From the sequence record DRR723986_3102: a stretch of 62,568 bases of DNA, one strand, 5' to 3'. The notes beneath the pieces were generated by a model. It was not told the DNA's origin. It ran no database searches and worked only from the letters and a program-made list of their open reading frames with translations. Both the position numbers and the translations under genes were made by a program. Below, in pieces: positions 16,222 through 59,851 of the stretch (within the stretch, counting starts at the first letter, position 1; each line of letters begins with the position of its first letter).

Positions 16222-16232
16222 ACGATGGCATC

Positions 16233-17135: not shown

Positions 17136-17141
17136 GCTTGC

Positions 17142-17873
17142 TCAGTCTTTCTTGAGCGCGTCTGCCACCGGGCTCTGGATAAAGGTCGTCTTGTTGGCCG
17201 CATCCGACTCGCTGCGTACCCGAGAGTAACTCTCACTGACCCGGAAAATAATATCGTGGAAACGCAGCTCGTCCTCATTACGCAGGGCCTGCTTGCGCTC
17301 AATAGGACGGCCATTGATCACTGTCCCGTTGGAGGAGCCGAGATCCTCGACATAAAGCTGATCGTCTTCAATGCTCAGCCGGGCATGCTGTCGTGACACG
17401 TGCGGACTGACCACGGCGATATCACACTCCAGCGCCCTACCCAGCACCAGCGCACTGACTACACCGAAACTGAGCCCCGCGAGCGGGCCGGTTTCTGCGG
17501 TGAGAATCCACTGGTACTCCGGGTGATGCTCGCCCTTGCGAAAATAGGTCGTAACCCCGCCGGAGCGGCGATCATTGATCGGCGCAATATTGGACAGCAC
17601 CCGACGCTCGACAAAGGAGGTGGTGCGCACGATGCCCTGGGGAGTGATCTGGAAGAACCAGGCCATGGCGAAGGTCAGAGGAAAACCGGCCACCGCGAGA
17701 TAGAGGAAATAGCGCGAGGCCATGTCTGAATCGAAGCCCAGCGCCGGAAAGAGGATATCGCCGACCTGCAACGCACCCCAGCACAATACGATATAGACCA
17801 CGCAGGTCCGCGTGACCTTCCTGCGCTTGAGTTCCCGGAAAAAGGAACCGGATTCCTGTTGGGAGTCAGTCAT
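17142..17873 (-). CDS. membrane-anchored FHA-domain protein
   Basis: N-terminal ELKRRKV + two TM helices; FHA motifs LGR, VSRQHA, DLGSSNGT. Confidence 0.88.
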   Translation of the reverse strand: MTDSQQESGSFFRELKRRKVTRTCVVYIVLCWGALQVGDILFPALGFDSDMASRYFLYLAVAGFPLTFAMAWFFQITPQGIVRTTSFVERRVLSNIAPINDRRSGGVTTYFRKGEHHPEYQWILTAETGPLAGLSFGVVSALVLGRALECDIAVVSPHVSRQHARLSIEDDQLYVEDLGSSNGTVINGRPIERKQALRNEDELRFHDIIFRVSESYSRVRSESDAANKTTFIQSPVADALKKD

Positions 17874-45068: not shown

Positions 45069-45098
45069 TTGTTACGTTAAAGCGCCTGTGGTTATACT
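45069..45098 (+). promoter_or_regulatory. putative sigma70 promoter of the 13-gene operon
   Basis: TTGTTA-N18-TATACT about 65 nt upstream of ATG 45165. Confidence 0.45.
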
Positions 45099-45164
45099 TG
45101 GCAGGACCAGTTCCAACAACTGATCGCGGTAACCCTTCACAGTGCCGCGAGCGTGACAGGCACC

Positions 45165-46520
45165 ATGACAGCATCCTCCGGCAAATCGCCGTTCGCCCTG
45201 GCAACGGCTCTGGCCCTGACGCTCTACGGCGGCAGCGCACTCGCCCAGGATCCGTCCGCGACGGTTACCGCCGAGGACATCCCAATCGCCAGCGCGGGCG
45301 ATGACCCCGCGCCGTCCGACCCGGTCGCCGTACCGACGGCCAGCGATCAAGCCGACGAACCGGTAGACAGCCTGCTGGACCAGGAGGACGACGCAGAGCC
45401 CCCCATTCCGGACAGTGCAACCGTTACCGATTACCGGCGAGCCGTGGCCCGGATCGAGGATGAATCCGGCGCCTATGGCGAGGGGATGTCAGAGCAACTC
45501 CTCGGGCTGGGGCTTGCCCTGCAACAGCAGGGTCGCCACCAGGAAGCGATTGACGTGTTCAAACGCGGCGTGCACCTGACGCGGATCAACGAGGGCCTGT
45601 ACGGCGCCGGCCAGATTGCCCTGCTGGAATCGGAGATTGCCAGCCATGTTGCGATTGGCGAGTTCTCCGCAGCGGACGAGCGCCAGGTCTACCTGTACCG
45701 GGTACAACAGCGGGCCCTGGCTACCGGGGCGGAGCGAGCCGAGGCCCTGATGCAACAGGCCCGGTGGCAACGCCGGGCCTATGACCTGGGCCTGGGTGAA
45801 TATGGCTACACTCGCCTGCTGACCATGTGGGACCTGTACCGCATGGCGTTGAACGACATTGCCGAGCGAGAGGGCGAATCTTCACCCAAGCTGCTGCGGC
45901 CGCTCATGGGTATGCTCAAGTCCCAGTACCTGATCGCCGGATTCCAGGGCGAGACCGCCAACGGGGCCTTTAACGTCGACGCCTTTGGCACCCGCCAGGA
46001 CGACGGCCGTTTCAATGCCTATCGCAGCTCGTCTTTCAAACGCGGCGAGGCGGTGCTTTCCGCCATCTACGAGATCAACAAGCGCAACACCGAAGGCGAC
46101 ACGCTGACCGCCGCCCGGGACCTGGTGATGCTGGGCGACTGGCGTTTCTGGCACGGGATGCGGGAGGGCGCACTGGACAGCTATCGGGAAGCGCTGGCGG
46201 AACTTGCAGCGCTCGATGATGCCCAAGAACAGGTGGAGCGCCTGTTTGGCGCTCCAGTACCGCTGCCGGATCTCGACGGGGTGCGGCCGCTGCCGCCGAC
46301 AACAAGCCCGGATATGGCGGATTTACTGGTAGAATTCGGGGTCAGCGCCGGTGGCAGAGTGGTTGACGTGAGCCGGATAGACGACGGCCTGGAGAACGAG
46401 TCCCAGGCCAATCGCCTGATCAGGCAACTGCGCCAGACCCGGTTCCGGCCGCGATTCGAAGGCAATGAGGCTGTGGACACCGACAAATTGAGCTGGGCAT
46501 ATGATACGGCAAGCTGGTAA
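45165..46520 (+). CDS. secreted TPR-like protein with C-terminal TonB-C-like domain
   Basis: signal peptide ending ALA-Q; helical TPR-like core; C-term VEFGVSAGGRVVDV...RQTRFRPRFEGNEAV resembles TonB_C. Confidence 0.7.
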   Translation: MTASSGKSPFALATALALTLYGGSALAQDPSATVTAEDIPIASAGDDPAPSDPVAVPTASDQADEPVDSLLDQEDDAEPPIPDSATVTDYRRAVARIEDESGAYGEGMSEQLLGLGLALQQQGRHQEAIDVFKRGVHLTRINEGLYGAGQIALLESEIASHVAIGEFSAADERQVYLYRVQQRALATGAERAEALMQQARWQRRAYDLGLGEYGYTRLLTMWDLYRMALNDIAEREGESSPKLLRPLMGMLKSQYLIAGFQGETANGAFNVDAFGTRQDDGRFNAYRSSSFKRGEAVLSAIYEINKRNTEGDTLTAARDLVMLGDWRFWHGMREGALDSYREALAELAALDDAQEQVERLFGAPVPLPDLDGVRPLPPTTSPDMADLLVEFGVSAGGRVVDVSRIDDGLENESQANRLIRQLRQTRFRPRFEGNEAVDTDKLSWAYDTASW

Positions 46521-47682
46521 CGCTTTGGACAAGGACGGCACAGTAATCAGGTTTGCCCTGATCGCCGCCGCCTGCGCGCTGCTCACCGGCTGCCCGAGTG
46601 CCAGTAACCCGACCATGCCGCAGCCGCCGTCAACTCCGAGTTCGGCGCCTTCCTCCAGCAGCTCGTCCAGCTCCAGCAGCAGTTCCAGTTCCAGCAGCAG
46701 CTCCTCCAGCTCGAGCAGCAGCTCGTCCAGTAGTCAGTCTTCGAGCTCTCCGTCCGCCAGCGCGCCACCCTCGGGAGCTTCCTCACCCTCGTCGCCCGGC
46801 AGCACCAGTGCGTCAACCGGCGGTGGTACACCTGCCAGCGAGGGCGGTGCCAGCGGTAACGAGGACATGGGGGATTTCCCCCAGGGCGAATTCCCTGGCG
46901 AAACTGCAGGCGGTGGCGACCCGACGGCCGGGGCCGGCGGCAATGCCGAACCTTCCTTCGAGGACGGCGGCGGCCAAGCGGGTGCCGAAGCCGGCGATCC
47001 CGGGTTCGGCGAGGGCATGGCCGGAGGCGATGCGCTGCCGGATATGCGAGATACGGAGCCGAGTTTTGAACAGGTCCTCGGCGCCATGGAAGATGCCATG
47101 GGTGAACCAGGCGACAGCGGCCAGGCGGGGGGGCAAACCGGCAGCGAGGGCACGCAGCAAGCGAGCGGCGGCGGTGGCTATCCCGGCTCACCGATGCCCG
47201 GGTATGAAGCGGGACAGGGCCAGCCCGGCGGCCAGGGTGGTCGCGGTCCGCTGACCCCGGCCGAGCAGGTGGCAATCCTCGATGCCCAGTTGGAGCAGGG
47301 TACCGGCGAATTCGACGCCATGATCCTCGAAGAACAGCAGGCCCAGCGCCAGGCTGCCCGGGAGCGACCAGCACCCAGCACACCTATTGAGCCCGCCGGC
47401 GGCAGTGGCGGTGGCGGTGCCTATGGCGGCGACCCCGCCTACGACAGTGAAGTCGCCGATGGCGGTGGTTACAGCGGTGGCGGCGGTATGGGCGGCGCTA
47501 CCCGGGGCGGCCAGGTACCGCAAAATACGGCGAAGTACCCGCCGCCGTCGGATATCCCCGACGGCAACGATGACGACGTGGTCGCGCGCCAGCTGCGAGA
47601 GGCCGCCATGCGCGAGCCAGATCCTGCGGTGCGCGAGAAGCTGTGGGACGAGTACCGCAAGTACAAGGGCATCACGCCGTGA
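46501..47682 (+). CDS. low-complexity Ser/Gly/acidic lipoprotein with ordered C-terminal helical domain
   Basis: lipobox LLTGC; poly-Ser; C-term DIPDGNDDDVVARQLREAA...LWDEYRKYK; start approximate. Confidence 0.75.
   Translation: MIRQAGNALDKDGTVIRFALIAAACALLTGCPSASNPTMPQPPSTPSSAPSSSSSSSSSSSSSSSSSSSSSSSSSSSSQSSSSPSASAPPSGASSPSSPGSTSASTGGGTPASEGGASGNEDMGDFPQGEFPGETAGGGDPTAGAGGNAEPSFEDGGGQAGAEAGDPGFGEGMAGGDALPDMRDTEPSFEQVLGAMEDAMGEPGDSGQAGGQTGSEGTQQASGGGGYPGSPMPGYEAGQGQPGGQGGRGPLTPAEQVAILDAQLEQGTGEFDAMILEEQQAQRQAARERPAPSTPIEPAGGSGGGGAYGGDPAYDSEVADGGGYSGGGGMGGATRGGQVPQNTAKYPPPSDIPDGNDDDVVARQLREAAMREPDPAVREKLWDEYRKYKGITP
46651..46734 (+). repeat. poly-serine tract (28 consecutive Ser codons)
   Basis: mixed TCC/TCG/AGC/AGT codons in frame. 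Confidence 0.9.
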
Positions 47683-48887
47683 ACCTGATCCTGCGCCTTG
47701 CGCTTGCCGGCTTGCTGACGACGCTGTTGAGCGCCTGCGTCAACCAGACCGTGAAGAGCACATCGGTACCGGCGATCCAGAGTGCCAGCGTGGAAGTGCC
47801 TGAGGGGCAGCTGCTGGATGTCGGCATCGCCATTTTTGATCCCGGCCTCGATGACTACGACGAAGACCAGCAGATCTACCCGGAAGTGCGCAAAGCCGAG
47901 GCGCGCTACATGCCACAGCTACTGGCAGACGCCATGCAGGATAGCGGAGCCTGGGGCGCAGTTCGCGTGGTGCCCGGACAGGCCACCATTACTGACCTGT
48001 TGGTAGAAGGTCAGATCCTGCAATCCGACGGCGAGGAATTGCAACTGCTGATCACCGCCACCGACTCGCGGGGCTTCGTGTGGCTCAACCGGAAATACAC
48101 CGGCAACGCGAGCCGTTACGCCTACGACAGCGTGACCCGCACCCAGTACGACCCGTTTCAGGTCATCTACAACCGGATTGCCAATGACCTCCTGCAAAAG
48201 CAGGAAGAACTGCGCGCGAAGGATCGCGAGTCCATCCGCACGGTCACCGAACTGCTGTTCGCACAGAGCTTCTCCGAAGAGGCCTTCACCGGCTATCTCG
48301 GCAAAACGCGCAAGGGCCAGTACCTGATCCTGCGCCTGCCCGCAGAGAATGACCCCATGCTGGAACGGGTGCGCAGCATCCGCGAGCGCGACCTGCTGTT
48401 CGTCGACACGCTGCAGGAATACTACGACGGCTTCAACGGCCAGATGCAGGACCCCTACCAGGAGTGGCGCAAGCTGACCTACGAGGAAGCCATGGCGCTG
48501 CAGGAGCTGAAAGCGGAAAGTACCCGGCGCCTTATCGCGGGCGGGCTGGCGGTGCTCGGTGGGATCGCAGCCGCGGGCGGTGGCGACCGGACTACCCGGG
48601 CGGCCGGGAACGTTGCCATCATCGGCGGCGGCTACCTGCTCAAGAGCGGCCTGGAGAAACGCGCCGAGGCGCAGATTCACGTTGAGGCGCTGGAAGAACT
48701 GGGCATGTCCCTCGAGGCGGAAATCACACCCCACGTGATCGAGCTCGAAGACCGCACGGTGATGCTGAGCGGCAATGTCGAGGACCAGTATGACCAGTGG
48801 CGCGAGCTGCTGGCAGATATTTACCGCGCTGAAATCGGTGCCCTGGAGCTGCCCGCCGAAGCGGGCACCGACAACGACACGCCCTGA
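47679..48887 (+). CDS. lipoprotein with glycine-rich hydrophobic hairpin
   Basis: GTGA overlap with previous gene; lipobox LLSAC; AGGLAVLGGIAAAGGG...VAIIGGG. Confidence 0.8.
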   Translation: MNLILRLALAGLLTTLLSACVNQTVKSTSVPAIQSASVEVPEGQLLDVGIAIFDPGLDDYDEDQQIYPEVRKAEARYMPQLLADAMQDSGAWGAVRVVPGQATITDLLVEGQILQSDGEELQLLITATDSRGFVWLNRKYTGNASRYAYDSVTRTQYDPFQVIYNRIANDLLQKQEELRAKDRESIRTVTELLFAQSFSEEAFTGYLGKTRKGQYLILRLPAENDPMLERVRSIRERDLLFVDTLQEYYDGFNGQMQDPYQEWRKLTYEEAMALQELKAESTRRLIAGGLAVLGGIAAAGGGDRTTRAAGNVAIIGGGYLLKSGLEKRAEAQIHVEALEELGMSLEAEITPHVIELEDRTVMLSGNVEDQYDQWRELLADIYRAEIGALELPAEAGTDNDTP

Positions 48888-48924
48888 ACGGGGCGTCCAA
48901 TCCCCTTTCCCGACTGAAGACTGC

Positions 48925-50469
48925 ATGCCAGCCGACAACAAGCCTGTTCAGCCAACCCCGTTCGAGGCCGCCCCTGCCAGTCAGCCGGCGGCAGCGACGG
49001 CGGACGCGACCCAGCAGAATGCCGCCAGTGGCCCGCCACCCTGGGTGCTGCCCGCACTCGGGGGCTTGTTGTTACTGGGTGCGCTGGTCGTGTTCTGGCT
49101 GCCGGGGCAGGTAGATCCCCAGGCGCCACCGGAAATCGCCGCACCCTCGACCGATACCGAACCCGGCTCGATATCGCCGGCGGGTAAACCGGCAACGACG
49201 TCGGCAGTCGAGGAAGCCTCACCCTGGTCAGACGCGCAGCTGGCCCGTCTGCGCAAGGAAGCCCAGGACGTGCTCGCGGAATTGCTCGACGTACAATTCC
49301 GGCTGGAGGAGCGCGGCATCGACCAGTGGGCAGCGGCGGCTTTCGCCGAGGCCGTGGCCATTGCCCAGGCAGGTGACGCGCTATACAAAAACCGGGACTT
49401 CGAGCCCGCCACCGCCGCCTATCGCGACAGCCTCGAGCGCCTGCTGGCGCTGGAGGCGGGGTTGCCGGAGGCATTTCAGGCACAACTGGCAGCGGCCAAT
49501 GAGGCCATCGAGGCTGGCGATTTGGAGCAGCTGGCCGCGGCACTGGCGCTGGCGGAACTGATCGAGCCCGGACACCCGGAGCTGGCCACCCTGGCCCAAC
49601 GCGGCGAGCGACTGCCAGAGCTGATGGCCCGGATGACCCGCGCCGCCGACGCGGAGCAAGCCGATGACCTGGCTACGGCCAGAGACTCGCTGCAGGCGGC
49701 GGTGGAACTCGATGGCGCCCACCAGCGTGCAGCGAGTGAACTCGCCAGGGTCAGTGCCGCCTATCAGCAGCAGCAATTCAACGATGCAATGAGTGCCGGA
49801 TACACCGCCCTCGATGCGGGACAGTTCGACAGTGCACGCTCGGCTTTCCGTCGGGCGGGCCAGCTGCAGCCCGGTTCAACCGAGGCCGCGAGCGCCCTGC
49901 AGGAAGTCGCCACCGCCGAAACCGGCAGTCGCCTGCAGCGCCTGCAGCAGCAGGGCGCACGCCAGGAAGGCAGTGAGAGCTGGCAAGCGGCCGTCGAGTC
50001 CTACCAGGCCGCACTCGCCATCGACAGTAATATCCTGTTTGCCCGTGAAGGACTGGAACGCAGCGAACCCCGCGCCCGCCTGGACAAGCAGTTCCGCACC
50101 GCGCTGGATGATCCCGATCGGCTGTCGGATGTCGCCGTCGCCGAGGCCACCGAAAACCTGCTGCGCCAGGCCCGGCGCATCACCGCTGCCGGGCCCGTGC
50201 TGCAGGAGCAGATCACGAAGCTGACCGCGCTATTGGAAAAAGCCAATACGCCGCTGGCTGTTGCCCTCAAGTCGGACGGTGAAACCGAGGTCATCATCTA
50301 CAAGGTGGCCCGCCTGGGCCGCTTCGAGCAGCACCGGCTGACCTTGCGTCCTGGCAGCTACACCGCCCTGGGTACTCGCAACGGTTATCGCGACGTACGC
50401 ACGACCTTTCGGGTCAGCCATGAATCCAATAGCGGGCCGGTGACCATCGCCTGCACTGAGCCCATCTGA
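48925..50469 (+). CDS. bitopic membrane protein: TM, long helical/TPR-like region, C-terminal PEGA-like domain
   Basis: TM WVLPALGGLLLLGALVVFWLP; Ala/Glu-rich helices; LRPGSYTALGTRNGY. Confidence 0.75.
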   Translation: MPADNKPVQPTPFEAAPASQPAAATADATQQNAASGPPPWVLPALGGLLLLGALVVFWLPGQVDPQAPPEIAAPSTDTEPGSISPAGKPATTSAVEEASPWSDAQLARLRKEAQDVLAELLDVQFRLEERGIDQWAAAAFAEAVAIAQAGDALYKNRDFEPATAAYRDSLERLLALEAGLPEAFQAQLAAANEAIEAGDLEQLAAALALAELIEPGHPELATLAQRGERLPELMARMTRAADAEQADDLATARDSLQAAVELDGAHQRAASELARVSAAYQQQQFNDAMSAGYTALDAGQFDSARSAFRRAGQLQPGSTEAASALQEVATAETGSRLQRLQQQGARQEGSESWQAAVESYQAALAIDSNILFAREGLERSEPRARLDKQFRTALDDPDRLSDVAVAEATENLLRQARRITAAGPVLQEQITKLTALLEKANTPLAVALKSDGETEVIIYKVARLGRFEQHRLTLRPGSYTALGTRNGYRDVRTTFRVSHESNSGPVTIACTEPI

Positions 50470-52536
50470 ATGACAGTCAGCGATCCCAACCCCCAGTCGA
50501 TTAAGCCCAGCAGCTTCCAGCCACTGGCGGACGCCGCACCACCCCCGCGGCAACGGGGCAACCCGCTGCGCTGGGTGCTGGCCGGCAGTGCCTTGCTGTT
50601 CCTGCTGATCATGGGCTTCCTGCTGACCTCGCGCTCGGTGCAGGTCGATGTGCTCGCAGAGGCTGAGGCAGAAATCGACATCAGCGGGCTGGCGCTGCCT
50701 TTCGGGGAGCGCTACCTGATGCGCCCAGGGACTTACCGGCTGCAGGTCAGCGCCCCTGGCTATTATCCTCACGATGCGGAGCTGCAGGTCAGCGAACAGG
50801 ACAGCCAGACCGTGCAGGTGGTCATGCAGCCCCTTCCCGGCCGCCTCAGCATCCAGAGTGAACCCGATGGCGCCCAGGTGCTGGTCGATGGCGAGCTTAT
50901 CGGCACCACGCCGCTCGCCGATCATCCGGTGGCGGCAGGTAGCCATGAACTCACCCTGCAGGCCGACCGCTACCAGCCGCTGGTCAGCCCCCTGGAGGTC
51001 GAGGGGCGGGAGATCCAGCAACAGCTGGAACTGCGCCTGGAACCAGCCTGGGCCGAGGTGTCGATTAACAGCGCGCCGCCCGGGGCCAGCATCCTGGTCG
51101 ATGGCGAGAACCTGGGCCAAACGCCCGCCACGGTCGAAATCATGGAAGGCGAACACCAGCTAATCCTGCAACTGCCGGCGTTCAGCGACTGGCAGCAAAA
51201 CCTGGAGGTGACGGCCGGACAGGCACAGGACCTGGGCGAGATCGCACTGCAAGCAGCCGCGGGGATTCTAAACCTGACCAGCAGCCCTGGCGGCGCCAAT
51301 GTCACCCTCGATGGTGAATTCCAGGGCCAGACTCCGCTGGAACTGGAAATCACCCCCAACCGTGACTACCGACTGGTACTGTCACGACCCGGGTATCGCC
51401 GCTACAGCGAGACCGTGCAGCTGGCAGCCGGCAGCCGTGCCGACAAGGCGATCACCCTGCGCGCCCAGCTGGGCGAGGTCCGTTTTGATATCGAGCCGGC
51501 CGGTGCCGTGTTGCGCCTCAACGGCAAGCCCGCGGGCAAGGGCAGCCAGCGCCTGTCGCTGCCGGCCTTCGAGCACAGTATCGAGGTCTCCCTCGACGGC
51601 TACGCCACCGTGCGCCGCAAGGTAACCCCGCGGCCGGGATTGGAACAGCTGGTGGCCATCAGCCTGCAGACCCGGGATGAAGCCCGTCTGGCCCAGCTCA
51701 AGCCGGAGCTCACCACAGCCCTGGGCCAGACCATGCTGCTGTTCAACCCGGCGGAATCACCGCGAGCCGAATTCACCATGGGCGCCTCGCGCCGCGAGCC
51801 TGGTCGTCGCGCCAACGAGGTCCTGCACCCGGTGCGCCTGGAGCGCATGTTCTACCTGCAGACCACCGAGGTGACCAACGCCCAGTTCCGCCAGTTCCTG
51901 GCCAGCCACAACTCCGGCCAGATCGAGGGCAACAGTCTCAACCGGGAGCACCAGCCCGCAGCACAGGTAAGCTGGCAGCAGGCAGCAAGGTTCAGCAACT
52001 GGCTGAGCAAGCGCGAGGGATTGGAGCCTTTCTACCGCGAGACCAATGGCATCATCAGTGGCTACAACCCCTCCTCCACCGGCTATCGGCTGCCCACCGA
52101 GACGGAGTGGGCCTGGGCGGCGCGAGTCCAGGGCGACCTGCTGCTCAAGTTCACCTGGGGAGACAACTTTCCCCCCACCGAGAAAGTGGAAAACTATGCG
52201 GACAACACCTCGGCCTACGTCACCGGGCGCATCCTCAACGGCTATACCGACGACCATGTAGTCAGCGCACCGGTGGCCAGCTTCCCGCCGAATCACCGCG
52301 GCCTGTATGACCTGGGCGGCAACGTCGCCGAATGGGTGCACGACGTGTACAGTATCCCTTCGGCCAACGGCACCCTGGAAGTGGACCCGCTGGGAGCGCA
52401 GAACGGCGACAACTATGTCATCCGCGGGGGCAGCTGGGCGCTAAGCAAACTGGCCGAGCTGCGCCTCTCCTTCCGCGATTATGGGCAAGCGGGACGGGAT
52501 GACGTAGGATTCCGACTGGCTCGCTACGCGGAATAG
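50470..52536 (+). CDS. TM-PEGA repeats-FGE/SUMF1-like domain protein
   Basis: about five PEGA repeats (S.P.GA.V.VDG...G.TP); FTMG, EVTNAQF, RLPTETEW, GLYDLGGNVAEW, RGGSW, GFRL. Confidence 0.9.
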   Translation: MTVSDPNPQSIKPSSFQPLADAAPPPRQRGNPLRWVLAGSALLFLLIMGFLLTSRSVQVDVLAEAEAEIDISGLALPFGERYLMRPGTYRLQVSAPGYYPHDAELQVSEQDSQTVQVVMQPLPGRLSIQSEPDGAQVLVDGELIGTTPLADHPVAAGSHELTLQADRYQPLVSPLEVEGREIQQQLELRLEPAWAEVSINSAPPGASILVDGENLGQTPATVEIMEGEHQLILQLPAFSDWQQNLEVTAGQAQDLGEIALQAAAGILNLTSSPGGANVTLDGEFQGQTPLELEITPNRDYRLVLSRPGYRRYSETVQLAAGSRADKAITLRAQLGEVRFDIEPAGAVLRLNGKPAGKGSQRLSLPAFEHSIEVSLDGYATVRRKVTPRPGLEQLVAISLQTRDEARLAQLKPELTTALGQTMLLFNPAESPRAEFTMGASRREPGRRANEVLHPVRLERMFYLQTTEVTNAQFRQFLASHNSGQIEGNSLNREHQPAAQVSWQQAARFSNWLSKREGLEPFYRETNGIISGYNPSSTGYRLPTETEWAWAARVQGDLLLKFTWGDNFPPTEKVENYADNTSAYVTGRILNGYTDDHVVSAPVASFPPNHRGLYDLGGNVAEWVHDVYSIPSANGTLEVDPLGAQNGDNYVIRGGSWALSKLAELRLSFRDYGQAGRDDVGFRLARYAE

Positions 52537-52539
52537 GCC

Positions 52540-52764
52540 ATGCTCCGAGTATTACCCAGCATCACCCTCGCCTTCGTCCTCACGGCCGCTGGCGCAGTTG
52601 CCCAGGAGCCGGTGGCGGAAAGCGACGAGTCCGCGGAGCCTGAAACCAGCCAGCCGGCGCAGTCAGGGGCAGCGGCCCCGGCCGGCGATGAATCGCCCTT
52701 CGACTACGAATCATCCGAGGAAATCTCGGAAGACCTGTCGGTCTCATTCCCGGTGGATATCTAG
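52540..52764 (+). CDS. small secreted acidic protein
   Basis: signal peptide ending AVA-Q; C-term EEISEDLSVSFPVDI; 3- and 9-nt gaps to neighbours. Confidence 0.75.
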   Translation: MLRVLPSITLAFVLTAAGAVAQEPVAESDESAEPETSQPAQSGAAAPAGDESPFDYESSEEISEDLSVSFPVDI

Positions 52765-52773
52765 GAAGCGTCA

Positions 52774-53571
52774 ATGAAAAATCGCATGTCATCCGAGTTC
52801 ATCTACCAGCTGTTTGCCCTGCTGATCGCCGTGATCGTGGTGCATGCGGTCTACGTCGGTGCCGTGCGGCCAAGCGCAGACGCCCAGCTCAAGCAGCAGG
52901 CGGAACTACAGGCTTCCGGGGCGGACTATGTCCCCGAGCGCAGCCTGGCGGTGGTCATTCGCGATTTCGAACAGGAGGCCTGTTTCATTCTCCTGATCTG
53001 GGCGCTTGCCATCATGGGCTACAAGGCCCGGCGCACCATCGCCGAGCAGGGGCTGGTCGAACGTGCCCTGGTTGATATCCCTGAGGGCACCAGTGTGCTG
53101 CCTGAAGACGCGCGGGAGTACAGCCGCGCCCTGGAGGCGCTGCCGCCACAGGAGCAGGACTACCTGCTGCCGCGCACCCTGCTCTCGGCCCTGCAGCGAT
53201 TCGCCACCACCGGCAGCATCCAGGCCGTATCCGACACCATCAAGGAACAATGCGATGTCGAGGCCGACCGGCTCGACTCCGAGCTGTCCATGGTGCGCTA
53301 TATCGCCTGGGCAATACCGTCCATCGGGTTCATCGGCACCGTGCGCGGTATCGGTGACGCCCTTGGCCAGGCCTACAAGGCGGTCGAAGGGGATATCTCC
53401 GGCGTGACCGTGAGCCTCGGAGTCGCGTTCAACAGTACCTTCGTCGCCCTGGTACTCAGCATCATCATCATGTTCTGCCTGCACCAGCTGCAATTGTCCC
53501 AGGAACGCCTGGTACTGGATTGCCAGCGCTACGCCGACAAGCGCCTGCTGCGCCACCTGGTGGCCCATTGA
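52774..53571 (+). CDS. MotA/TolQ/ExbB proton-channel family protein
   Basis: IPSIGFIGTVRGI and LGVAFNSTFVAL TM signatures. Confidence 0.9.
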   Translation: MKNRMSSEFIYQLFALLIAVIVVHAVYVGAVRPSADAQLKQQAELQASGADYVPERSLAVVIRDFEQEACFILLIWALAIMGYKARRTIAEQGLVERALVDIPEGTSVLPEDAREYSRALEALPPQEQDYLLPRTLLSALQRFATTGSIQAVSDTIKEQCDVEADRLDSELSMVRYIAWAIPSIGFIGTVRGIGDALGQAYKAVEGDISGVTVSLGVAFNSTFVALVLSIIIMFCLHQLQLSQERLVLDCQRYADKRLLRHLVAH

Positions 53572-53573
53572 CC

Positions 53574-54842
53574 ATGACCCCCGCACTGCTGGACATCAAC
53601 GACAGCAACCTGCAACTGTGGCATGGCGACAGCCTTGTGCAGAGTCCGGGCTACGCCCTGCTCGACGGCAGCGGCTACCTGTTCGGCAGCCCGGCGCGGG
53701 GCGCCGCGCGCCGCCAGCCGCGCAATATCAATACGCGTTTCTGGTGGCAGCTGAATATGGAGCCACTGCAACCAGCGCTGGGGCCGGCCCGGCACACCGC
53801 CGACCTGGTTCACGCGCACCTGCAGGCCCTGCACGGCGAGGCGGGAGCGCCCACTGAACTGATTCTCGCGGTCTCCGGCAGTCTTGGACGGGAGCAGTTG
53901 TCCCTGCTGCTGGGCATCATCCAGGTCTGCCCCTTTGATGCCATTGGGCTGGTGAATCGCAGCGTCGCGCTGGCCAGTCCCTACGCGGGCAACGGACGGC
54001 TGTTTCACCTGGAGATCCAGCTGCACCAGGCGGTGCTCACCGAGCTCGCCAACGACGGCGATACCGTCACCGTCGAACGCACCGTACCTCTACCCGGCTG
54101 CGGGCTGCTGCAACTGCAGGAACGGCTGGTGGAAATCATTGCTGCCGCCTTTGTCCGCCAGACCCGCTTCGATCCCCGGCGCAAGGCGGATACCGAGCAG
54201 ACCCTGTACGACATCCTGCCGGCGGCCCTGCGCGACCTGCAGCAGCGCGGGGAAATCAACATCGAGGTCAATGGCTACCGGGCGCGGATCAATCGCAAGG
54301 ATCTGCTGGACGCGGGCCAGCGCCTGTTCACCAGCGCACCGGAAGCCATGGGCGTCTGGCGTCCGGATGACCGGGTGCTGCTCGATCCCGTCGCGGCCCT
54401 GCTGCCCGGTCTGGCGGAGGAATTCGAGGCGGTCGAGGTACTGGCCGCTGATGCCCTGCCGCTCGCGGTCGAACGCAACCTGGACCACCTGTTGCAGCGC
54501 GGTGAAAGCCTGAATTTCGTGTCCACCCTGCCCTGCAGCGGCGAGCCGATCGCGCCGCGAACCGAGGGCCTGCAGTCGTCGCCACCGGTAGCGCCAGAAC
54601 CCGCAATCGCAGCTGCAACCCACCTGCTGGTGGCCGATGCCGCGCACCCCCTGCCCGGCTCGCCACTGCTGCCGGAGGGCTGGACCTTGCAGGCAGAAAA
54701 CGGCGGCTGGCGGGTGACAGGCCCCGAGCCGGACCTGCTGCGGGTAAACGGGGACGTCTACCGGGGCCAGGCCCTGGGCGCCGGCGACCGGATACAGATC
54801 GGTGACGGGCGGGAGGCCCGGCTGATCAAGGTTCTGGAGTAG
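53574..54842 (+). CDS. degenerate Hsp70/actin-fold domain fused to C-terminal FHA-like domain
   Basis: collinear similarity to the DnaK nucleotide-binding domain (see findings); C-term LRVNG...LGAGDRIQIG. Confidence 0.6.
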   Translation: MTPALLDINDSNLQLWHGDSLVQSPGYALLDGSGYLFGSPARGAARRQPRNINTRFWWQLNMEPLQPALGPARHTADLVHAHLQALHGEAGAPTELILAVSGSLGREQLSLLLGIIQVCPFDAIGLVNRSVALASPYAGNGRLFHLEIQLHQAVLTELANDGDTVTVERTVPLPGCGLLQLQERLVEIIAAAFVRQTRFDPRRKADTEQTLYDILPAALRDLQQRGEINIEVNGYRARINRKDLLDAGQRLFTSAPEAMGVWRPDDRVLLDPVAALLPGLAEEFEAVEVLAADALPLAVERNLDHLLQRGESLNFVSTLPCSGEPIAPRTEGLQSSPPVAPEPAIAAATHLLVADAAHPLPGSPLLPEGWTLQAENGGWRVTGPEPDLLRVNGDVYRGQALGAGDRIQIGDGREARLIKVLE

Positions 54843-54850
54843 GTCGCGCT

Positions 54851-55942
54851 ATGGTCAGGCGGAAGCGCGGATTCACCACCTTCAACCTGAGCTTTCTGGA
54901 TATTATGTCCTGTGGCTTCGGCGCGGTGGTGCTGGTCTTCCTGATCATCGACCACTCCATCGAAGTGGAATCCAAGGAACTCAACCGGGACCTGCTGTCC
55001 GAGGTGAGGCTGCTGGAAGAGGATGTCACCGACGGTGAGGAGGGCCTGGTGCGCCTGCGCAACACCCTGTCGGACGTCGACCTGCAGCTGGTCGAGGCCC
55101 AGGGTCGCGCCACCCGGATCATCGAGGAGATGTCCGAATACGAGGCCCTGATCGAAGACCTGCGCCGGGACGGGTTCACCGACAGTTCAGACATCGAGGA
55201 ACTGAAGGCGGAAATCCTGTCGCTGGAGGAAGAGGTCAAGAAACTGCGCCAGGCCTCCGAGGACGACAGCGGCAACAGCGCCCGGACCTTCGTCGGCGAA
55301 GGCAACCGGCAGTACCTTACAGGCCTCAACCTCGGCGGGCGCAACATTGCAATCCTGGTGGACGTGTCCTCGAGCATGCTGGCGGACCGGCTGGTCAATG
55401 TGATCCGCCTGCGCAACATGGGGCAGGATCTCCAGCGCCGCGCGGAGAAGTGGACCCGGGCGCTGAACACGGTGGACTGGCTCACCGCGCAATTGCCAGT
55501 CGGCAGCAACTACCAGGTGATTACCTTCAATACCGCCGCCACCCCGGCCCTGGCCGGCACCGAGGACAAGTGGCTCGAAGTGGCGGACCAGGCACAGCTG
55601 GAGAAGGTCACCGCCGCGCTGCGCGACATCACCCCCACCGGCGGTACCAGCCTGGAGAACGCCTTCCTCGCCCTGCAACGGCTGTCCCCTGCCCCGGACA
55701 ATATTTTCCTCATCACCGACGGCCTGCCCACCCAGGGCACCAAGCCCCCCCGTGGCACCACCATCAGCGGCCGCGACCGGCAGCGCCTGTACCGGGACGC
55801 AGTGAAGCAATTGCCCAAGAACGTGCCGATTAATATTATCCTCGCACCCATGGAGGGCGACCCGATGGCGGCCTCCGAATTCTGGCAGCTGGCCCAGGTC
55901 AGCCGCGGCTCGTTCATGAGCCCGTCCAGGGACTGGCCCTAG
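54851..55942 (+). CDS. ExbD-like TM + coiled coil + vWA domain protein (paralogue 1)
   Basis: NLSFLDIMSCGFGAVVLVFLII; MIDAS DVSSS...GGT...ITDG. Confidence 0.85.
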   Translation: MVRRKRGFTTFNLSFLDIMSCGFGAVVLVFLIIDHSIEVESKELNRDLLSEVRLLEEDVTDGEEGLVRLRNTLSDVDLQLVEAQGRATRIIEEMSEYEALIEDLRRDGFTDSSDIEELKAEILSLEEEVKKLRQASEDDSGNSARTFVGEGNRQYLTGLNLGGRNIAILVDVSSSMLADRLVNVIRLRNMGQDLQRRAEKWTRALNTVDWLTAQLPVGSNYQVITFNTAATPALAGTEDKWLEVADQAQLEKVTAALRDITPTGGTSLENAFLALQRLSPAPDNIFLITDGLPTQGTKPPRGTTISGRDRQRLYRDAVKQLPKNVPINIILAPMEGDPMAASEFWQLAQVSRGSFMSPSRDWP

Positions 55943-55954
55943 GAGCCCGCCGCC

Positions 55955-56956
55955 ATGCCGAGCAAGCGCCGCGCACCCGAAGAGTTCTCCCTGTCCTTCC
56001 TGGACGTGATCTGCTGTGGCTTTGGCGCGGTTATCCTGCTGTTGATGATCACCAAGACCGTGCAACCGCAGATCATCGAGGCTTCAACGGTCAACCTCGA
56101 GGGCCTGGTGGCCGAACTCCAGGAGCAGGTGTTTGAACTGCGCGGCGAGACCCGGATTCTCAACCGCGACCTGAACGCCAAGCAGGAGCAGTTGTCGGAG
56201 TATGAGGAGCGCATCGCCATCCTGCGCGGCCAGCTGGCCAGCTCGAAGTCCCGCTATGACAGCATCCAGGTACAGCGCAACAGCAATGACGTGATCACCG
56301 ACCAGCTGGCTATTGCACGCCAGTCGCTGACCGAGGAGATGAAGCGATTGCTGGGCAGCCAGTACCAGTCGAAGAACAACCTGATCGGCGGCATACCGGT
56401 CGACAGCGAGTACATTATTTTCATCATCGACACCTCGGGGTCGATGTTCTCCTACAGCTGGGACCGGATGATGGCGGAACTGGAGGCCACCCTGAGTATC
56501 TACCCCGAGGTCAAGGGCATCCAGATCATGAACGATATGGGTAACTATATGTTCAGCCGCTACCGGGGCCAGTGGATACCGGATACACCAGGACGCCGGC
56601 AGGTGATCATGCAGAACCTGCGCAACTGGAACGTGTTCTCCAACTCCAGCCCCGTGGAGGGCATCACCCAGGCAATTCGCACCTTCTACGACCCGAAAAA
56701 GAAGATCAGTATCTACGTCTTCGGCGACGAATTTACCGGTGAGTCCATCGCCCAGGTCGTCGACACCGTCGACCGGCTGAATCGCGAGGCCGCAGACGGG
56801 GCCCGCCGGGTGCGCATCCATGCGGTGGGCTTCCCCGTACAATTTATCAGGGCACCGCACCTGCAAACCACGGGCATTCGCTTTGCTACACTTATGAGAG
56901 AACTGACCTATCGCAACGGAGGCACGTTTGTCGGGCTTAACGATTTTCGCCCCTGA
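55955..56956 (+). CDS. ExbD-like TM + coiled coil + vWA domain protein (paralogue 2)
   Basis: SLSFLDVICCGFGAVILLLMI; MIDAS DTSGS...VFGDEF. Confidence 0.85.
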   Translation: MPSKRRAPEEFSLSFLDVICCGFGAVILLLMITKTVQPQIIEASTVNLEGLVAELQEQVFELRGETRILNRDLNAKQEQLSEYEERIAILRGQLASSKSRYDSIQVQRNSNDVITDQLAIARQSLTEEMKRLLGSQYQSKNNLIGGIPVDSEYIIFIIDTSGSMFSYSWDRMMAELEATLSIYPEVKGIQIMNDMGNYMFSRYRGQWIPDTPGRRQVIMQNLRNWNVFSNSSPVEGITQAIRTFYDPKKKISIYVFGDEFTGESIAQVVDTVDRLNREAADGARRVRIHAVGFPVQFIRAPHLQTTGIRFATLMRELTYRNGGTFVGLNDFRP

Positions 56957-57743
56957 GGTCCGTACCGGCCGTCGCCTGCTGCAGCGGGTCGGCCTGCTGC
57001 TCGCGCTCGCCTGCCTGGCGGCCTGCGGCACCCAGAAAGTCGTGGTCAAAGGCAACTTCCCCCAGCCGCTGATGAGCAAACTGCCCCTGACCATAGGGGT
57101 CTGGTACGACGAAGGTTTCAGCAAGCACGAATTTTTCGACGAAGCCAAGGGTCGCGCCGAGGCATCCTGGGTGGTGCAGACCGGCGCCGCCCAGGTCCAG
57201 ATGTGGGATATTCTGTTGGACGGGATGTTCAAGGAGCTGATTCACATGCGCGCTCGCCCGGCCCCGGGTGTGCTGAACCCGGTGGTCGATGCGGTATTGA
57301 TTCCCAGCGTGGAGGAGTTGCAGTACGCCATCCCGCAGCACACCAATGTGAAGGTGTATGAGATATGGATGCGTTACCGCTTTGACCTGGTCAGGACCAG
57401 TGGCGACCCCATCGCCTCCTGGACCATGTCATCCTACGGCAAGACCCCGACCGCCTTCCTGCGCTCGGACACCGAGGCCGTCAACCTCGCGGCGGTGGTG
57501 GCACTGCGTGACGCAGGCGCTAACTTCGCGGTAAATTTTACCCGCATCCCCGAGGTGCGAGACTGGATGGAAGGGCGCCAGCGCCCGGGTCAGCGGCAAC
57601 CGCCAGCAGCGGTCGCGCAGCCGGCCAATCCAATTGAAGCAACGGCTCCTGAGCAGGCGACGGGAGCCAGGGCACCAGGCGGCGCCAAACCAGCGCCGGC
57701 CGAGCGTTCGGTGGCAAGGCCGCCGGGAGATCGACGGACATGA
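56928..57743 (+). CDS. lipoprotein, hypothetical
   Basis: lipobox CLAAC; alpha/beta core; Pro/Ala-rich tail; start uncertain. Confidence 0.7.
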   Translation: MSGLTIFAPEVRTGRRLLQRVGLLLALACLAACGTQKVVVKGNFPQPLMSKLPLTIGVWYDEGFSKHEFFDEAKGRAEASWVVQTGAAQVQMWDILLDGMFKELIHMRARPAPGVLNPVVDAVLIPSVEELQYAIPQHTNVKVYEIWMRYRFDLVRTSGDPIASWTMSSYGKTPTAFLRSDTEAVNLAAVVALRDAGANFAVNFTRIPEVRDWMEGRQRPGQRQPPAAVAQPANPIEATAPEQATGARAPGGAKPAPAERSVARPPGDRRT

Positions 57744-58402
57744 AACTCTGGACCTTTGCCGCCGCGGCAGGCGTTGCCGCACTGTTGACCGGCTGCGTTA
57801 CCGCCACGGTCGACGAAATGGTGTTCAACGAACCCACCGAGGGCATTGGCGACTCGACGGTAGTCATCCTCGGCCGGCGTCACGCCAGCGATTACGAAAC
57901 CGAGCCGGACTTCATCAAGTGCGTGGGCAACCACATCGCCTCGCGCGATCGCTCCATCGAGGTGATCGGTGAGCTGGACTTCCTGAATGCCCTCTACCCC
58001 TGGTTTGAACCGCGCACCGCACCGCTGCGCCCGCAGGACATCGACAAACTGATGGCCCAGCCACCCGTGGCAGCCAAGATGGCCTCGCTGAGAACCGAAT
58101 ACCTGATCTGGATCGACGGCAGCACGGTGCGCACCAACTCGGCGGGCTCAATGACCTGTGGCATCGGCCCCGGCGGCGCAGGCTGCTTCGGTTTCGGCAC
58201 CTGGGGCAACGACTCGGATTACGAGGCGACGATCTGGGACTTCACCGACGCGGCAGAAGTTGGTCGGGTGAACACCAGTGCCAGCGGCCAGTCCTATATG
58301 CCCGCCCTGGTGGTGCCGATCCCGATCATTGCGCCGGTTCAGGGCACGGCCTGTGATGGCATCGGCGACCAGCTCCTCGAATTCCTGTCCAGCGAATACT
58401 GA
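57740..58402 (+). CDS. lipoprotein, hypothetical (Cys-containing)
   Basis: ATGA overlap; lipobox LLTGC; CGIGPGGAGCFG hairpin. Confidence 0.8.
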   Translation: MKLWTFAAAAGVAALLTGCVTATVDEMVFNEPTEGIGDSTVVILGRRHASDYETEPDFIKCVGNHIASRDRSIEVIGELDFLNALYPWFEPRTAPLRPQDIDKLMAQPPVAAKMASLRTEYLIWIDGSTVRTNSAGSMTCGIGPGGAGCFGFGTWGNDSDYEATIWDFTDAAEVGRVNTSASGQSYMPALVVPIPIIAPVQGTACDGIGDQLLEFLSSEY

Positions 58403-58408
58403 TCTGCC

Positions 58409-59851
58409 GTGAAGATGACGCTGAGATCACTGGCAAGCCTGCTACTCCCACTGGGCACCGCGCTGCTGCTTGCCGGCTGCTCCGGCAACCCGGCGACCGG
58501 CACGCCGACCGTGGTGCTGAGTTCTCAGGGCAAGGAAGTTGCCATCGGCGAGGAGATGCATGAAAAGATGATCGCCGAGGGCGCCGCCTACGACGATCCC
58601 GAATTACAGGCCTACGTCGATCGGGTAGGCCAGGCCTTGGTTGCCAACAGTGACCAGCCAGACCTTAAGTTCACCTTCACGGTAATCGACGCGCCGGACA
58701 TCAATGCCTTCGCAACTCCCGGCGGCTTTATCTATGTCAATCGCGGCCTGCTGGCCTACCTCGACAACGAGGCCGAGCTGGCAGGCGTGCTGTCTCACGA
58801 GATCGGCCACGTGACCGCCCGGCACCACGCCCGGCGCCAGACCGCCGATGTCACCAACAAGGTTCTTGCCACCACCGTGGGCATTCTCACTGGCAGCCGG
58901 GACGTGATGGATGCCTCCACCATGTACGGCGCCGAACTGCTCAGCGGCTATGGCCGGGACATGGAACTGGAAGCGGACGGCCTGGGCGCCGAGTACATGC
59001 ACAAAACCGGATACGACACCGATGCCCTGCTGGAGGTGATCGGCGTGCTCAAGGACCAGGAGCAATTCCAGCGGGTCAAGGCAAAGGCCAGCGGCAAGCC
59101 GGTCAAAAGCTACCACGGCCTGTACGCCACCCACCCGCGCAATGACAAGCGGCTACAGACAGTCATCCAGGCGGCGGGCGACCTGGACCGGGACGAGTAC
59201 ATCGAAAGCCCGGAGCAACCCGGTGAGTTCCGGCGCCAAATCAACGGCCTGGTCTGGGGGCAAAGCATCCAAGGCCAGTCTGACCCTGATCGCTATTATC
59301 ACAACAAACTGGGATTCACCTTCAAACACCCCCCCGGCTGGACGGTCAACGCCGGCGCGAGCGCCATCACCACGGCGGCCAGCGACAACAACGCGTCACT
59401 GACTATCACCTTGCGTCGCCGGGATGCAAAGGTCACCCCACAGTCGGTGCTGGAGAGCGGCGCCAACGGTACCCTGAGCATTGGCAAGGAACTGGAACAG
59501 GCCGGGCTCAATGGCTATACCGCAGTGGCGAGTGACGGCAGTACGGCGCGTCGCCTGGCAGTCATCGACCACAATTACAGCTACCTGTTCGAAGGCCAGG
59601 CCCAGGACTTTGCCAGCGCCGATGCCACGCTGCTGGCCATCATTGAGAGTTTCCGGCCAATGCACCCGAAGGAGCGCCAGAGCGGCACCCCCACCTACAT
59701 CAGCTACATCCAGGTTCCGCGCGGAGCGACCCTGGCCAGCCTCGCATCCAGCCTGCGGATTCCCGATGCAGAAGCCCAGCTGCGCCTGATCAACGGCTTC
59801 TACCCCCGCGGTGAACCCCGCACCGGCGACTGGATCAAAGTCATCAAATAG
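58409..59851 (+). CDS. M48-family Zn metalloprotease lipoprotein with C-terminal LysM-like domain
   Basis: lipobox LLAGC; NAFATPGG, HEIGH, ELEAD, THP; C-term VPRGATLASLA...LRLING. Confidence 0.9.
   Translation: MKMTLRSLASLLLPLGTALLLAGCSGNPATGTPTVVLSSQGKEVAIGEEMHEKMIAEGAAYDDPELQAYVDRVGQALVANSDQPDLKFTFTVIDAPDINAFATPGGFIYVNRGLLAYLDNEAELAGVLSHEIGHVTARHHARRQTADVTNKVLATTVGILTGSRDVMDASTMYGAELLSGYGRDMELEADGLGAEYMHKTGYDTDALLEVIGVLKDQEQFQRVKAKASGKPVKSYHGLYATHPRNDKRLQTVIQAAGDLDRDEYIESPEQPGEFRRQINGLVWGQSIQGQSDPDRYYHNKLGFTFKHPPGWTVNAGASAITTAASDNNASLTITLRRRDAKVTPQSVLESGANGTLSIGKELEQAGLNGYTAVASDGSTARRLAVIDHNYSYLFEGQAQDFASADATLLAIIESFRPMHPKERQSGTPTYISYIQVPRGATLASLASSLRIPDAEAQLRLINGFYPRGEPRTGDWIKVIK

Follow-up and report, generated by a model that had tools for sequence, protein, structure and literature searches.

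We have analyzed a cluster of 13 closely packed or overlapping open reading frames (ORFs) located on the plus strand, at positions 45153-59851, of the 62,568-nucleotide (nt) record DRR723986_3102 (the whole of this stretch of DNA is called here the window), whose host is a marine bacterium, a gammaproteobacterium. The segment 52774-56956 encodes four proteins, named here g7, g8, g9 and g10, and we consider it likely that this locus is the core of a proton-driven motor of the 5:2 type in which the dimer of ExbD, TolR or MotB is replaced by g9 plus g10, two proteins bearing a vWA domain (for von Willebrand factor A). Five copies of the TolQ-like g7 would form a ring in the inner membrane, with the N-terminal helices of g9 and g10, one of each (5:1:1), in its pore. 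The pair of Asp17 residues would face a ring of threonines of g7 (T189/T222), taking up and releasing protons, and the proton flow would turn the g7 ring and the g9/g10 axle relative to each other. The two chains would form a parallel heterodimeric coiled coil of ~13 nm carrying two vWA heads into the periplasm, where each head, through its metal-ion-dependent adhesion site (MIDAS), would hold a partner by an acidic residue and transmit torque or pull to it. The candidates for this partner are the acidic tail of g6, the GldK-like g5 and the lipoproteins of the cluster, while g8, as an anchor or regulator, probably binds g7 from the cytoplasmic side. The insertion in the pore, the heterodimer, the rotation, the identity of the ligand, the grip and pull on it and the cellular role are what we infer for the g7-g10 motor, and as to this role, we would guess at a machine that spans the envelope and acts on the outer membrane or the cell surface.

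The four genes and the features of the two vWA proteins are given below. The counts of loci come from a synteny comparison, in which the proteins of the window were searched with tblastn against the best 80 loci, out of at least 600 species that carry a relative (scan with one genome per species).

52774..53571, plus strand: g7, TolQ/ExbB/MotA-family membrane protein, 265 amino acids (aa), 76 of 80 loci
53574..54842, plus strand: g8, cytoplasmic protein resembling the Hsp70 nucleotide-binding domain (NBD) or actin, with an FHA-like domain, 422 aa, 77 of 80 loci
54851..55942, plus strand: g9 (vWA-A), 363 aa, with pore-type helix, heptad helix and vWA domain, 80 of 80 loci
nt 54881-54949, plus strand: g9 helix of the trans-pore type, with Asp17 at 54899-54901
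within g9: heptad helix at ~aa 36-140 and vWA domain at ~aa 165-363
within g9: predicted MIDAS, D171-x-S173-x-S175 (DVSSS) at 55361-55375, T266 at 55646-55648 and D290 at 55718-55720
55955..56956, plus strand: g10 (vWA-B), paralogue of g9, 333 aa, 80 of 80 loci
nt 55985-56053, plus strand: g10 helix, with Asp17 at 56003-56005
within g10: helix at aa 48-135 and vWA fold at ~aa 148-330
within g10: predicted MIDAS, D159-x-S161-x-S163 (DTSGS) at 56429-56443, S232 at 56648-56650 and D258 at 56726-56728

Both vWA proteins begin with a basic stretch, MVRRKRGFTTFNLSFLDIMSCGFGAV in g9 and MPSKRRAPEEFSLSFLDVICCGFGAV in g10, and each of them has exactly one strongly hydrophobic segment, at residues 15-33. 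An earlier note on this DNA had described these N-termini as a basic stretch followed by a membrane helix with a conserved Asp, and the motifs that it quoted, SFLDIMSCGFGAV and SFLDVICCGFGAV, are found where it had placed them. The conservation of the Asp was borne out. The alignment of g9 comprised the query and 108 of the best 150 representatives of the family (330-385 aa, 31-74% identity; 42 were dropped because of their length). Position 17 is an Asp in all 96 rows that cover the column (95 representatives and the query), with no other residue found, and the 13 rows of 109 that are gapped there correspond to predicted proteins that start downstream. In g10 orthologues from 76 loci Asp17 is equally invariant (76/76). 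Actually, the residues F15, D17, C21, G22, G24 and L28 of the helix are invariant in all three alignments made, which strongly disfavors a mere signal peptide or passive anchor.

Behind the helix come a coiled coil and a vWA domain, as the earlier note had proposed for both proteins. The heptad score (best fraction of hydrophobic residues at a/d positions per 28-aa window) was 0.81 for g9 against 0.55+-0.04 in shuffled sequences, a value reached by none of 300 shuffles, and 0.70 for g10 against 0.57+-0.04, reached by 2 of 300. An AlphaFold2 model of g10 shows residues 48-135 as a single helix, which at the helical rise of 0.15 nm per residue makes a shaft ~13 nm long. In g9 the C-terminal domain passes the Pfam VWA_2 cut-off by a narrow margin (3.1e-7, 31.4 bits versus 27). 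No Pfam vWA match was obtained for g10 even at E<=10, and here the call, made by eye, proved right through structure: its C-terminal domain was modeled with a predicted local distance difference test score (pLDDT) mostly of 73-93, and in Foldseek it retrieved integrin I-domains, ITIH1, alpha2delta, BatB (3ibs) and a Catenulispora vWA protein (E 7e-8 to 5e-5, probability 1.00).

The DVSSS and DTSGS motifs and the downstream Asp that had been read in the two heads translate at the places given above, and the complete site is conserved. In the 109 rows of the g9 alignment D171 is kept in 104 (E in 4 and Q in 1), S173 in 108, S175 in 104, T266 in 95 (S in 7, A in 6 and a gap in 1) and D290 in all, while in the g10 orthologues D159, S161, S163 and D258 are found in 76/76 and S232 in 75/76. 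When the two ortholog families were aligned with hhalign (probability 99.5%, E 3.4e-22, 312 columns, 21% identity) the five positions were equated, D171/S173/S175/T266/D290 of g9 with D159/S161/S163/S232/D258 of g10. BLASTP detects the relationship over the first ~180 aa (3e-10). By these alignments g9 and g10 are paralogues over their whole length, and each keeps a full MIDAS for which metal binding is predicted.

The vWA family is large: of 8000 scored candidates, 4963 proteins fall at E<=1e-3, and there are 1430, 841 and 319 representatives at 50% identity for E<=1e-3, 1e-10 and 1e-30, respectively. In the databases its members are named only 'VWA domain-containing protein'. The best 80 loci all belong to Gammaproteobacteria (Halieaceae, Microbulbifer, Porticoccus, Pseudohongiella, Pseudoalteromonas denitrificans and many metagenome-assembled genomes, MAGs), and g9 and g10 are both present, adjacent and in the same order in every one of them. 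Carriers that can be cultivated include Congregibacter variabilis, Pseudohalioglobus, Microbulbifer and Pseudoalteromonas denitrificans. g7 is found in 76, its misses falling at contig ends, and many of the gene misses among the 80 loci are of this kind, i.e., the locus is cut at the end of a contig. The genes of the cluster share order and orientation across loci with few exceptions (for example, g11 in the locus L064 and g13 in L075). Four of the MAG contigs (L046, L041, L052 and L058) are titled Klebsiella pneumoniae or 'uncultured Enterobacteriaceae' while their identity is as in MAGs of Cellvibrionales/Pseudomonadales, so that these taxon labels look doubtful.

The spacing between the membrane Asp and the first MIDAS Asp is nearly fixed, at 154 residues in 51 of 75 g9 proteins and 142 in 57 of 75 g10 proteins, and the two spacings co-vary (r = 0.78), although the sequences are phylogenetically related. 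Besides, we have found a protein of 473 aa (P0212) in which a head of the g10 type (57% identity, 4e-86) and one of the g9 type (50% identity, 1e-77) are fused behind a signal peptide, with neither pore helix nor coiled coil. The order of the heads is opposite to that of the genes, so the fusion is not a read-through. It may be an assembly artefact, and it can be taken as a hint, of the Rosetta-stone kind, at a joint action of the two heads.

The presumed pentameric proton channel, g7, matches the Pfam family MotA_ExbB PF01618 (E 1.5e-14, 54.3 bits versus a cut-off of 22.9). Scores against the NCBIfam equivalogs of TolQ (5.4e-6, 26.3 of the 221 bits of the cut-off) and ExbB (1.3e-3, 18.9 of 135 bits) are not reached, and g7 is therefore neither TolQ nor ExbB proper. 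Two threonines stand in pore motifs, T189 in GFIGTVRG (nt 53338-53340) and T222 in AFNSTF (nt 53437-53439), and both (GFIGTVRG and FNSTF) are invariant in 73/73 g7 orthologues. In an alignment of short segments with the TolQ and ExbB of E. coli K-12 these motifs fall on the pore-lining motifs GTVWG and ATA.

The canonical partner of such a channel was searched for in the surroundings. ExbD, MotB and OmpA profiles were unmatched in the 13 ORFs of the cluster and in the 35 other ORFs of the window scanned, among which no flagellar genes were found near the cluster either. A tblastn search of the window and the 80 loci (~1.49 Mb) with the TolR, ExbD and MotB of E. coli gave a single, unrelated MotB-like match, ~10 kb away.

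Several observations weigh against the motor that we propose. The ExbD (PF02472), MotB_plug and OmpA profiles are unmatched at E<=10 by g9, g10 or the first 60 residues of each, and this restricts the term 'ExbD-like' used in the earlier note: it holds for the membrane helix only. There, Asp17 of g9 and g10 shares a column with the essential Asp of the TolR, ExbD and MotB of E. coli, after a similar basic stretch, in a MAFFT alignment of five sequences over short segments. With a motif so short and so few sequences this appears as a resemblance rather than a proof of homology. The first 45 residues of g9 matched no chain in a PDB search, and the g10 model has a pLDDT < 50 at residues 1-24 and 29-46, and is thus uninformative on the membrane helix. 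The searches of the PDB with the whole g9 and with its family profile retrieved only coiled-coil proteins or nothing significant, and g7 gave no significant match; at the level of sequence matching, then, no relative with a solved structure appeared for g9, its family profile or g7. BLASTP of g7 against TolQ, ExbB and MotA of E. coli was not significant (E 0.44-1.6), and a second N-terminal hydrophobic stretch of g7 at ~aa 68-83, below the hydropathy threshold, leaves the number of helices at 3 or 4. Nor is the tblastn search for ExbD/TolR a sensitive test, since the TolQ/ExbB/MotA queries hit g7 in no locus. The shafts of g9 and g10 differ by 12 residues, which does not favor a simple in-register dimer, and the heterodimer would rest on co-occurrence, spacing and one fusion protein. 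Literature searches retrieved no phenotype, expression or interaction data for any member of the family. On balance the earlier interpretation is partly supported, being right in the anatomy and plausible in the mechanism; those of its predictions that were put to a test were all borne out.

A first alternative would be that g9 and g10 belong to two separate motors, each of them providing a homodimeric axle (5:2) to a different g7 pentamer. To our knowledge, the B subunits are homodimeric in every ExbBD, TolQR or MotAB unit solved so far, a precedent that speaks for it, as does the difference in spacing (154 versus 142), awkward for a parallel heterodimer in register. However, both paralogues are found with a single g7 in 80/80 loci, their spacings co-vary (as described above), and P0212 joins one head of the B type with one of the A type. 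Genes of similar proteins have also been described as being 'predominantly in heterologous pairs' in a recent paper (PMC12204202). We consider this arrangement improbable.

The two proteins could also be plain anchored vWA proteins of the BatA/BatB type, with g7 being independent or working with an ExbD/TolR encoded elsewhere. The BatB structure (3ibs) among the Foldseek matches of the g10 head and the lack of any match of g9/g10 to the ExbD or MotB profiles are consistent with this, and so are relatives in which the head is carried by another N-terminus: P0212, with only a signal peptide, and P0250, in which a g9-type head follows an unrelated N-terminal region with several hydrophobic stretches. 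A plain anchor, on the other hand, does not account for an acidic residue in the middle of the helix nor for the invariance of F15, L16, D17, C21, G22 and G24 across homologues that are 31-94% identical. The two genes have g7 as their neighbor in 76/80 loci, and the search within 10 kb revealed no ExbD/TolR. The probability of such simple anchors appears to be low.

It is very unlikely that g9 and g10 lose their N-termini as cleaved signal peptides and are soluble in the periplasm or secreted: signal peptides, too, have a basic n-region ahead of a hydrophobic stretch, and the heads of P0212 do sit behind an ordinary signal peptide, but here the helix is almost totally conserved with an Asp inside, and it is followed by LIIDHSIEVE (g9) or MITKTVQPQ (g10), in which no small-x-small cleavage motif was seen by eye. 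Equally remote is a Zorya-like anti-phage system with a MotAB-type unit as sensor, for which the weak similarity of g7 to ZorA in PADLOC (E 0.0097, 12.9 bits) could be invoked, given that ZorB, ZorC, ZorD and ZorE were unmatched, that the other PADLOC matches were coiled-coil noise against LmuB/PbeC, and that the cluster, syntenic across Halieaceae, Microbulbifer, Porticoccus, Pseudohongiella and Pseudoalteromonas with protein identities that fall together, is located among housekeeping genes with even guanine plus cytosine (GC) content, unlike a defence island. PADLOC made no assignment to a defence system.

The proposed g7-g10 motor is embedded in a larger set of genes. The conserved envelope cluster comprises 12-13 genes, g13 being often, although not always, the last one, and the rest of it is as follows.

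45153..46520, plus strand: g1, at the head of the cluster, secreted TPR protein of 455 aa, 49 of 80 loci
46501-47682, plus strand: g2, low-complexity lipoprotein of no known family, rich in Ser, Gly and acidic residues, 50 of 80 loci
47643-48887, plus strand: g3, lipoprotein of no known family, 60 of 80 loci
48775-50469, plus strand: g4, single-pass TPR protein, 64 of 80 loci
50470..52536, plus strand: g5, periplasmic protein of 688 aa anchored in the membrane, containing 4 PEGA repeats plus an FGE-sulfatase-type domain, 69 of 80 loci
52540..52764, plus strand: g6, small secreted protein, 74 aa, with its tail at 52717-52761, found by tblastn in 32 of 80 loci
56928-57743, plus strand: g11, lipoprotein of no known family with a lipobox-like motif, 75 of 80 loci
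57740-58402, plus strand: g12, lipoprotein of no known family with a lipobox-like motif, 69 of 80 loci
58409..59851, plus strand: g13, M48 (BepA-like) lipoprotein peptidase, 57 of 80 loci

The gene of g8 is located between the channel gene g7 and the vWA gene g9, with its ATG (53574) two bases past the stop of g7. A longer ORF starts at the TTG 53520, overlapping g7 by 52 bases, and the alignment of orthologues favors the ATG. The AlphaFold2 model (mean pLDDT 92.3) has an Hsp70-NBD/actin-like fold at ~residues 1-325 followed by a small C-terminal beta domain, and the NBDs of DnaK, Hsp70 and Ssz1 were the Foldseek matches in the PDB (E ~1e-13). The C-terminal domain is a degenerate FHA-like domain: Pfam FHA is detected in the C-terminus of 2 of 37 orthologues (best 1.4e-10), and g8 scores 0.94 with a related Atlas cluster, 99% of whose members have FHA. 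No N-terminal signal or anchor segment was found, the single hydrophobic stretch (110-128) lying inside the predicted fold, and g8 is therefore cytoplasmic. Its identity across loci (23-61%) is far below that of its neighbors. The glycine-rich phosphate loops typical of Hsp70/actin ATPases are not evident in the family consensus, so that g8 may be a scaffold rather than an enzyme. The earlier note had made no mention of this 422-aa protein.

A small ORF is found between g5 and g7 in all 64 loci that hold both genes. The g6 protein has a start resembling a signal peptide, a variable, acidic linker of low complexity and a near-invariant C-terminal tail, EEISEDLSVSFPVDI-COOH, that is acidic and ends in ISEDLSVSFPVDI. 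The tail [FY]P-x-DI ends 63 of the 64 ORFs (62 of them in PVDI), with the consensus [FY]-x-P-[ST]-E-x-I-S-E-D-L-S-V-S-F-P-V-D-I-COOH, and the exception looks like a pick in the wrong frame. The last ~16 residues are near-invariant from Halieaceae to Pseudoalteromonas. Being an invariant, acidic, C-terminal and periplasmic peptide, the tail of g6 is a candidate MIDAS ligand.

Immediately upstream, g5 matches Pfam PEGA (1.5e-60) and FGE-sulfatase (2.6e-41) and has one hydrophobic segment, at 36-54. Its nearest NCBIfam model is that of PorK/GldK of the type 9 secretion system (T9SS) (2.1e-29, 103.1 bits versus a cut-off of 350), over the FGE-type domain only. In g1 the TPR matches are near or just at the Pfam cut-offs, and 3 of 8 orthologues show a weak TonB_C-like C-terminus (1.6e-4 to 6.3e-4, below the cut-off), as if it were a TonB-type head without a TonB-type membrane anchor. 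The sequence of g2 contains ~30 consecutive serines and long low-complexity stretches rich in Gly, Glu and Asp, and only its ends seem conserved. The lipobox-like motifs of g11 and g12 are LAAC and LTGC, and the start and stop codons of these two genes overlap the neighboring genes. No Pfam matches were found for g3, g6, g11 and g12 of the window, nor for the orthologues of g3, g11 and g12 scanned (10 each for g11 and g12). Finally, g13 matches Pfam Peptidase_M48 (1.8e-36) and the BepA model (1.6e-37, 129 bits versus a cut-off of 570).

The cluster is a vertically inherited part of the core genome and not an island. The proteins of the window are 77-94% identical to those of Halieaceae/Halioglobus, the GC content is even along it, and the rest is ordinary chromosome (purA, hflKC, hflX, miaA, mutL, amiC, tsaE, rnr and others). 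The flanks are not conserved together with the cluster, the GGT gene upstream being found in 1/80 loci and the amidohydrolase downstream in 21/80. A promoter-like site is located ahead of g1, at 45069-45098, in a region where the count of such sites is not above chance, with 3 promoter-like sites versus 2.6 expected and 9 terminator-like ones versus 10.4. At 35 kb from the cluster (15361-17873 of the window) a PP2C phosphatase, a Ser/Thr kinase and an FHA-domain protein adjoin each other.

We put forward, very tentatively and as something that is on the whole unlikely, that the 12-13 genes (45153-58402, or up to 59851) together specify a single rotary machine of marine Gammaproteobacteria, complete, spanning the envelope and so far undescribed. 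In it the TolQ-like ring would turn the heterodimeric shaft, the two MIDAS heads of the shaft would clasp the g6 tail (ISEDLSVSFPVDI) or a ring of g5, and g8 would hold or gate the motor from the cytoplasm. If that were true, the machine would be a functional analogue of T9SS/gliding or of Agl-Glt made of different parts, acting on outer-membrane lipoproteins or on a surface structure.

Proton-driven 5:2 motors power flagella, TonB-dependent uptake, the maintenance of the envelope by Tol-Pal, gliding and type 9 secretion, and Zorya defence, and until now every further axle partner has brought another cellular process with it. As judged by their motifs, g9/g10 look motor-like in the membrane, in the way of ExbBD, TolQR and MotAB, yet fail the family tests for ExbD, TolR and MotB. 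The likeness to ExbB-ExbD and TolQ-TolR lies in g7, which belongs to the same Pfam family and has the same GTV-G and Thr pore motifs, and in the single-pass g9/g10, whose N-terminus is basic and whose helix contains an Asp. They differ in that a coiled coil plus vWA stands here for the periplasmic domain of ExbD/TolR, two different B chains for the homodimer, and g7 has an extra N-terminal hydrophobic region; a third subunit of the TonB/TolA type, with an SHLS helix, is not in the cluster. With a pore helix joined directly to an adhesion domain, the motor would pull or turn the bound protein without a go-between of the TonB/TolA type. The flagellar stators MotA-MotB and PomAB share the 5:2-type architecture proposed here and the Asp in the B helix, and g7 may share their four-helix layout (by eye), whereas g9/g10 have neither plug nor OmpA-like peptidoglycan-binding domain and the motifs of g7 are nearer to TolQ/ExbB than to MotA.

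GldL-GldM and PorL-PorM have a long dimeric periplasmic shaft on a pentameric proton channel, together with GldK/PorK, of the FGE-sulfatase fold. The shaft on a channel plus g5, of the same fold, is a likeness to GldL-GldM-GldK that is only architectural: g5 is membrane-anchored and has PEGA repeats, its presumed shaft is a coiled coil that ends in vWA domains, the DNA belongs to a gammaproteobacterium, and no GldM, GldN or other T9SS matches were obtained. BatA/BatB have a vWA head on an N-terminal membrane helix, and BatB (3ibs) is a structural match of g10. Bat operons contain a MoxR ATPase and no TolQ-like gene, and we know of no conserved Asp in the Bat anchors, in contrast to the TolQ-like g7 and the conserved helix Asp found here. 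Myxococcus AglRQS is a motor of the TolQR type with two different TolR-like chains. The Agl-Glt gliding machinery to which it belongs has a vWA adhesin, CglB (PMC9946355, PMC11761067), and is reported to combine TPR proteins, lipoproteins and this vWA protein in one envelope-spanning system. The likeness is again architectural only, CglB being a separate outer-membrane lipoprotein that is not fused to a pore helix.

The closest precedent is found in print. A paper of June 2025 (Origin and Evolution of Bacterial Periplasmic Force Transducers, Mol Biol Evol, PMC12204202) describes membrane-tethered 'TPH-vWA' proteins encoded beside tolQ-like genes as putative force transducers, without the SHLS motif of TonB/TolA and with a TolR/ExbD-like trans-pore helix that carries a conserved Asp. 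They are 'predominantly found in heterologous pairs', tightly linked to a tolQ homologue while tolR/exbD are missing from the neighborhood, and occur widely among Proteobacteria and Verrucomicrobia. AlphaFold 3 models place a TPH-vWA pair inside a TolQ-like pentamer, with the Asp pair ringed by threonines, which is the same model as in the earlier note, reached independently, and the function is called unknown (PMC12204202). Beyond it, our literature searches retrieved neither another paper on systems of this kind nor any experimental study. Compared by description, our locus agrees with these proteins in every trait given; the seed of the published search is an Idiomarina protein, a genus that does not appear among the best 120 matches of an Alteromonadales orthologue. 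By this description, the locus is a new member of a design already predicted in 2025, so that the novelty implied in the earlier note does not hold, and what is new is the context and not the concept. The published passages on these proteins make no mention of the coiled coil, the conservation of the MIDAS, the Hsp70-like gene, the GldK-like gene or the small protein with an acidic tail. As far as can be seen from it, the 12-13-gene context, the Hsp70-like/FHA-like g8 and the acidic tail of g6 are new. It is this context that makes the published prediction testable, by providing a candidate ligand tail, an Hsp70-like partner and a GldK-like protein.

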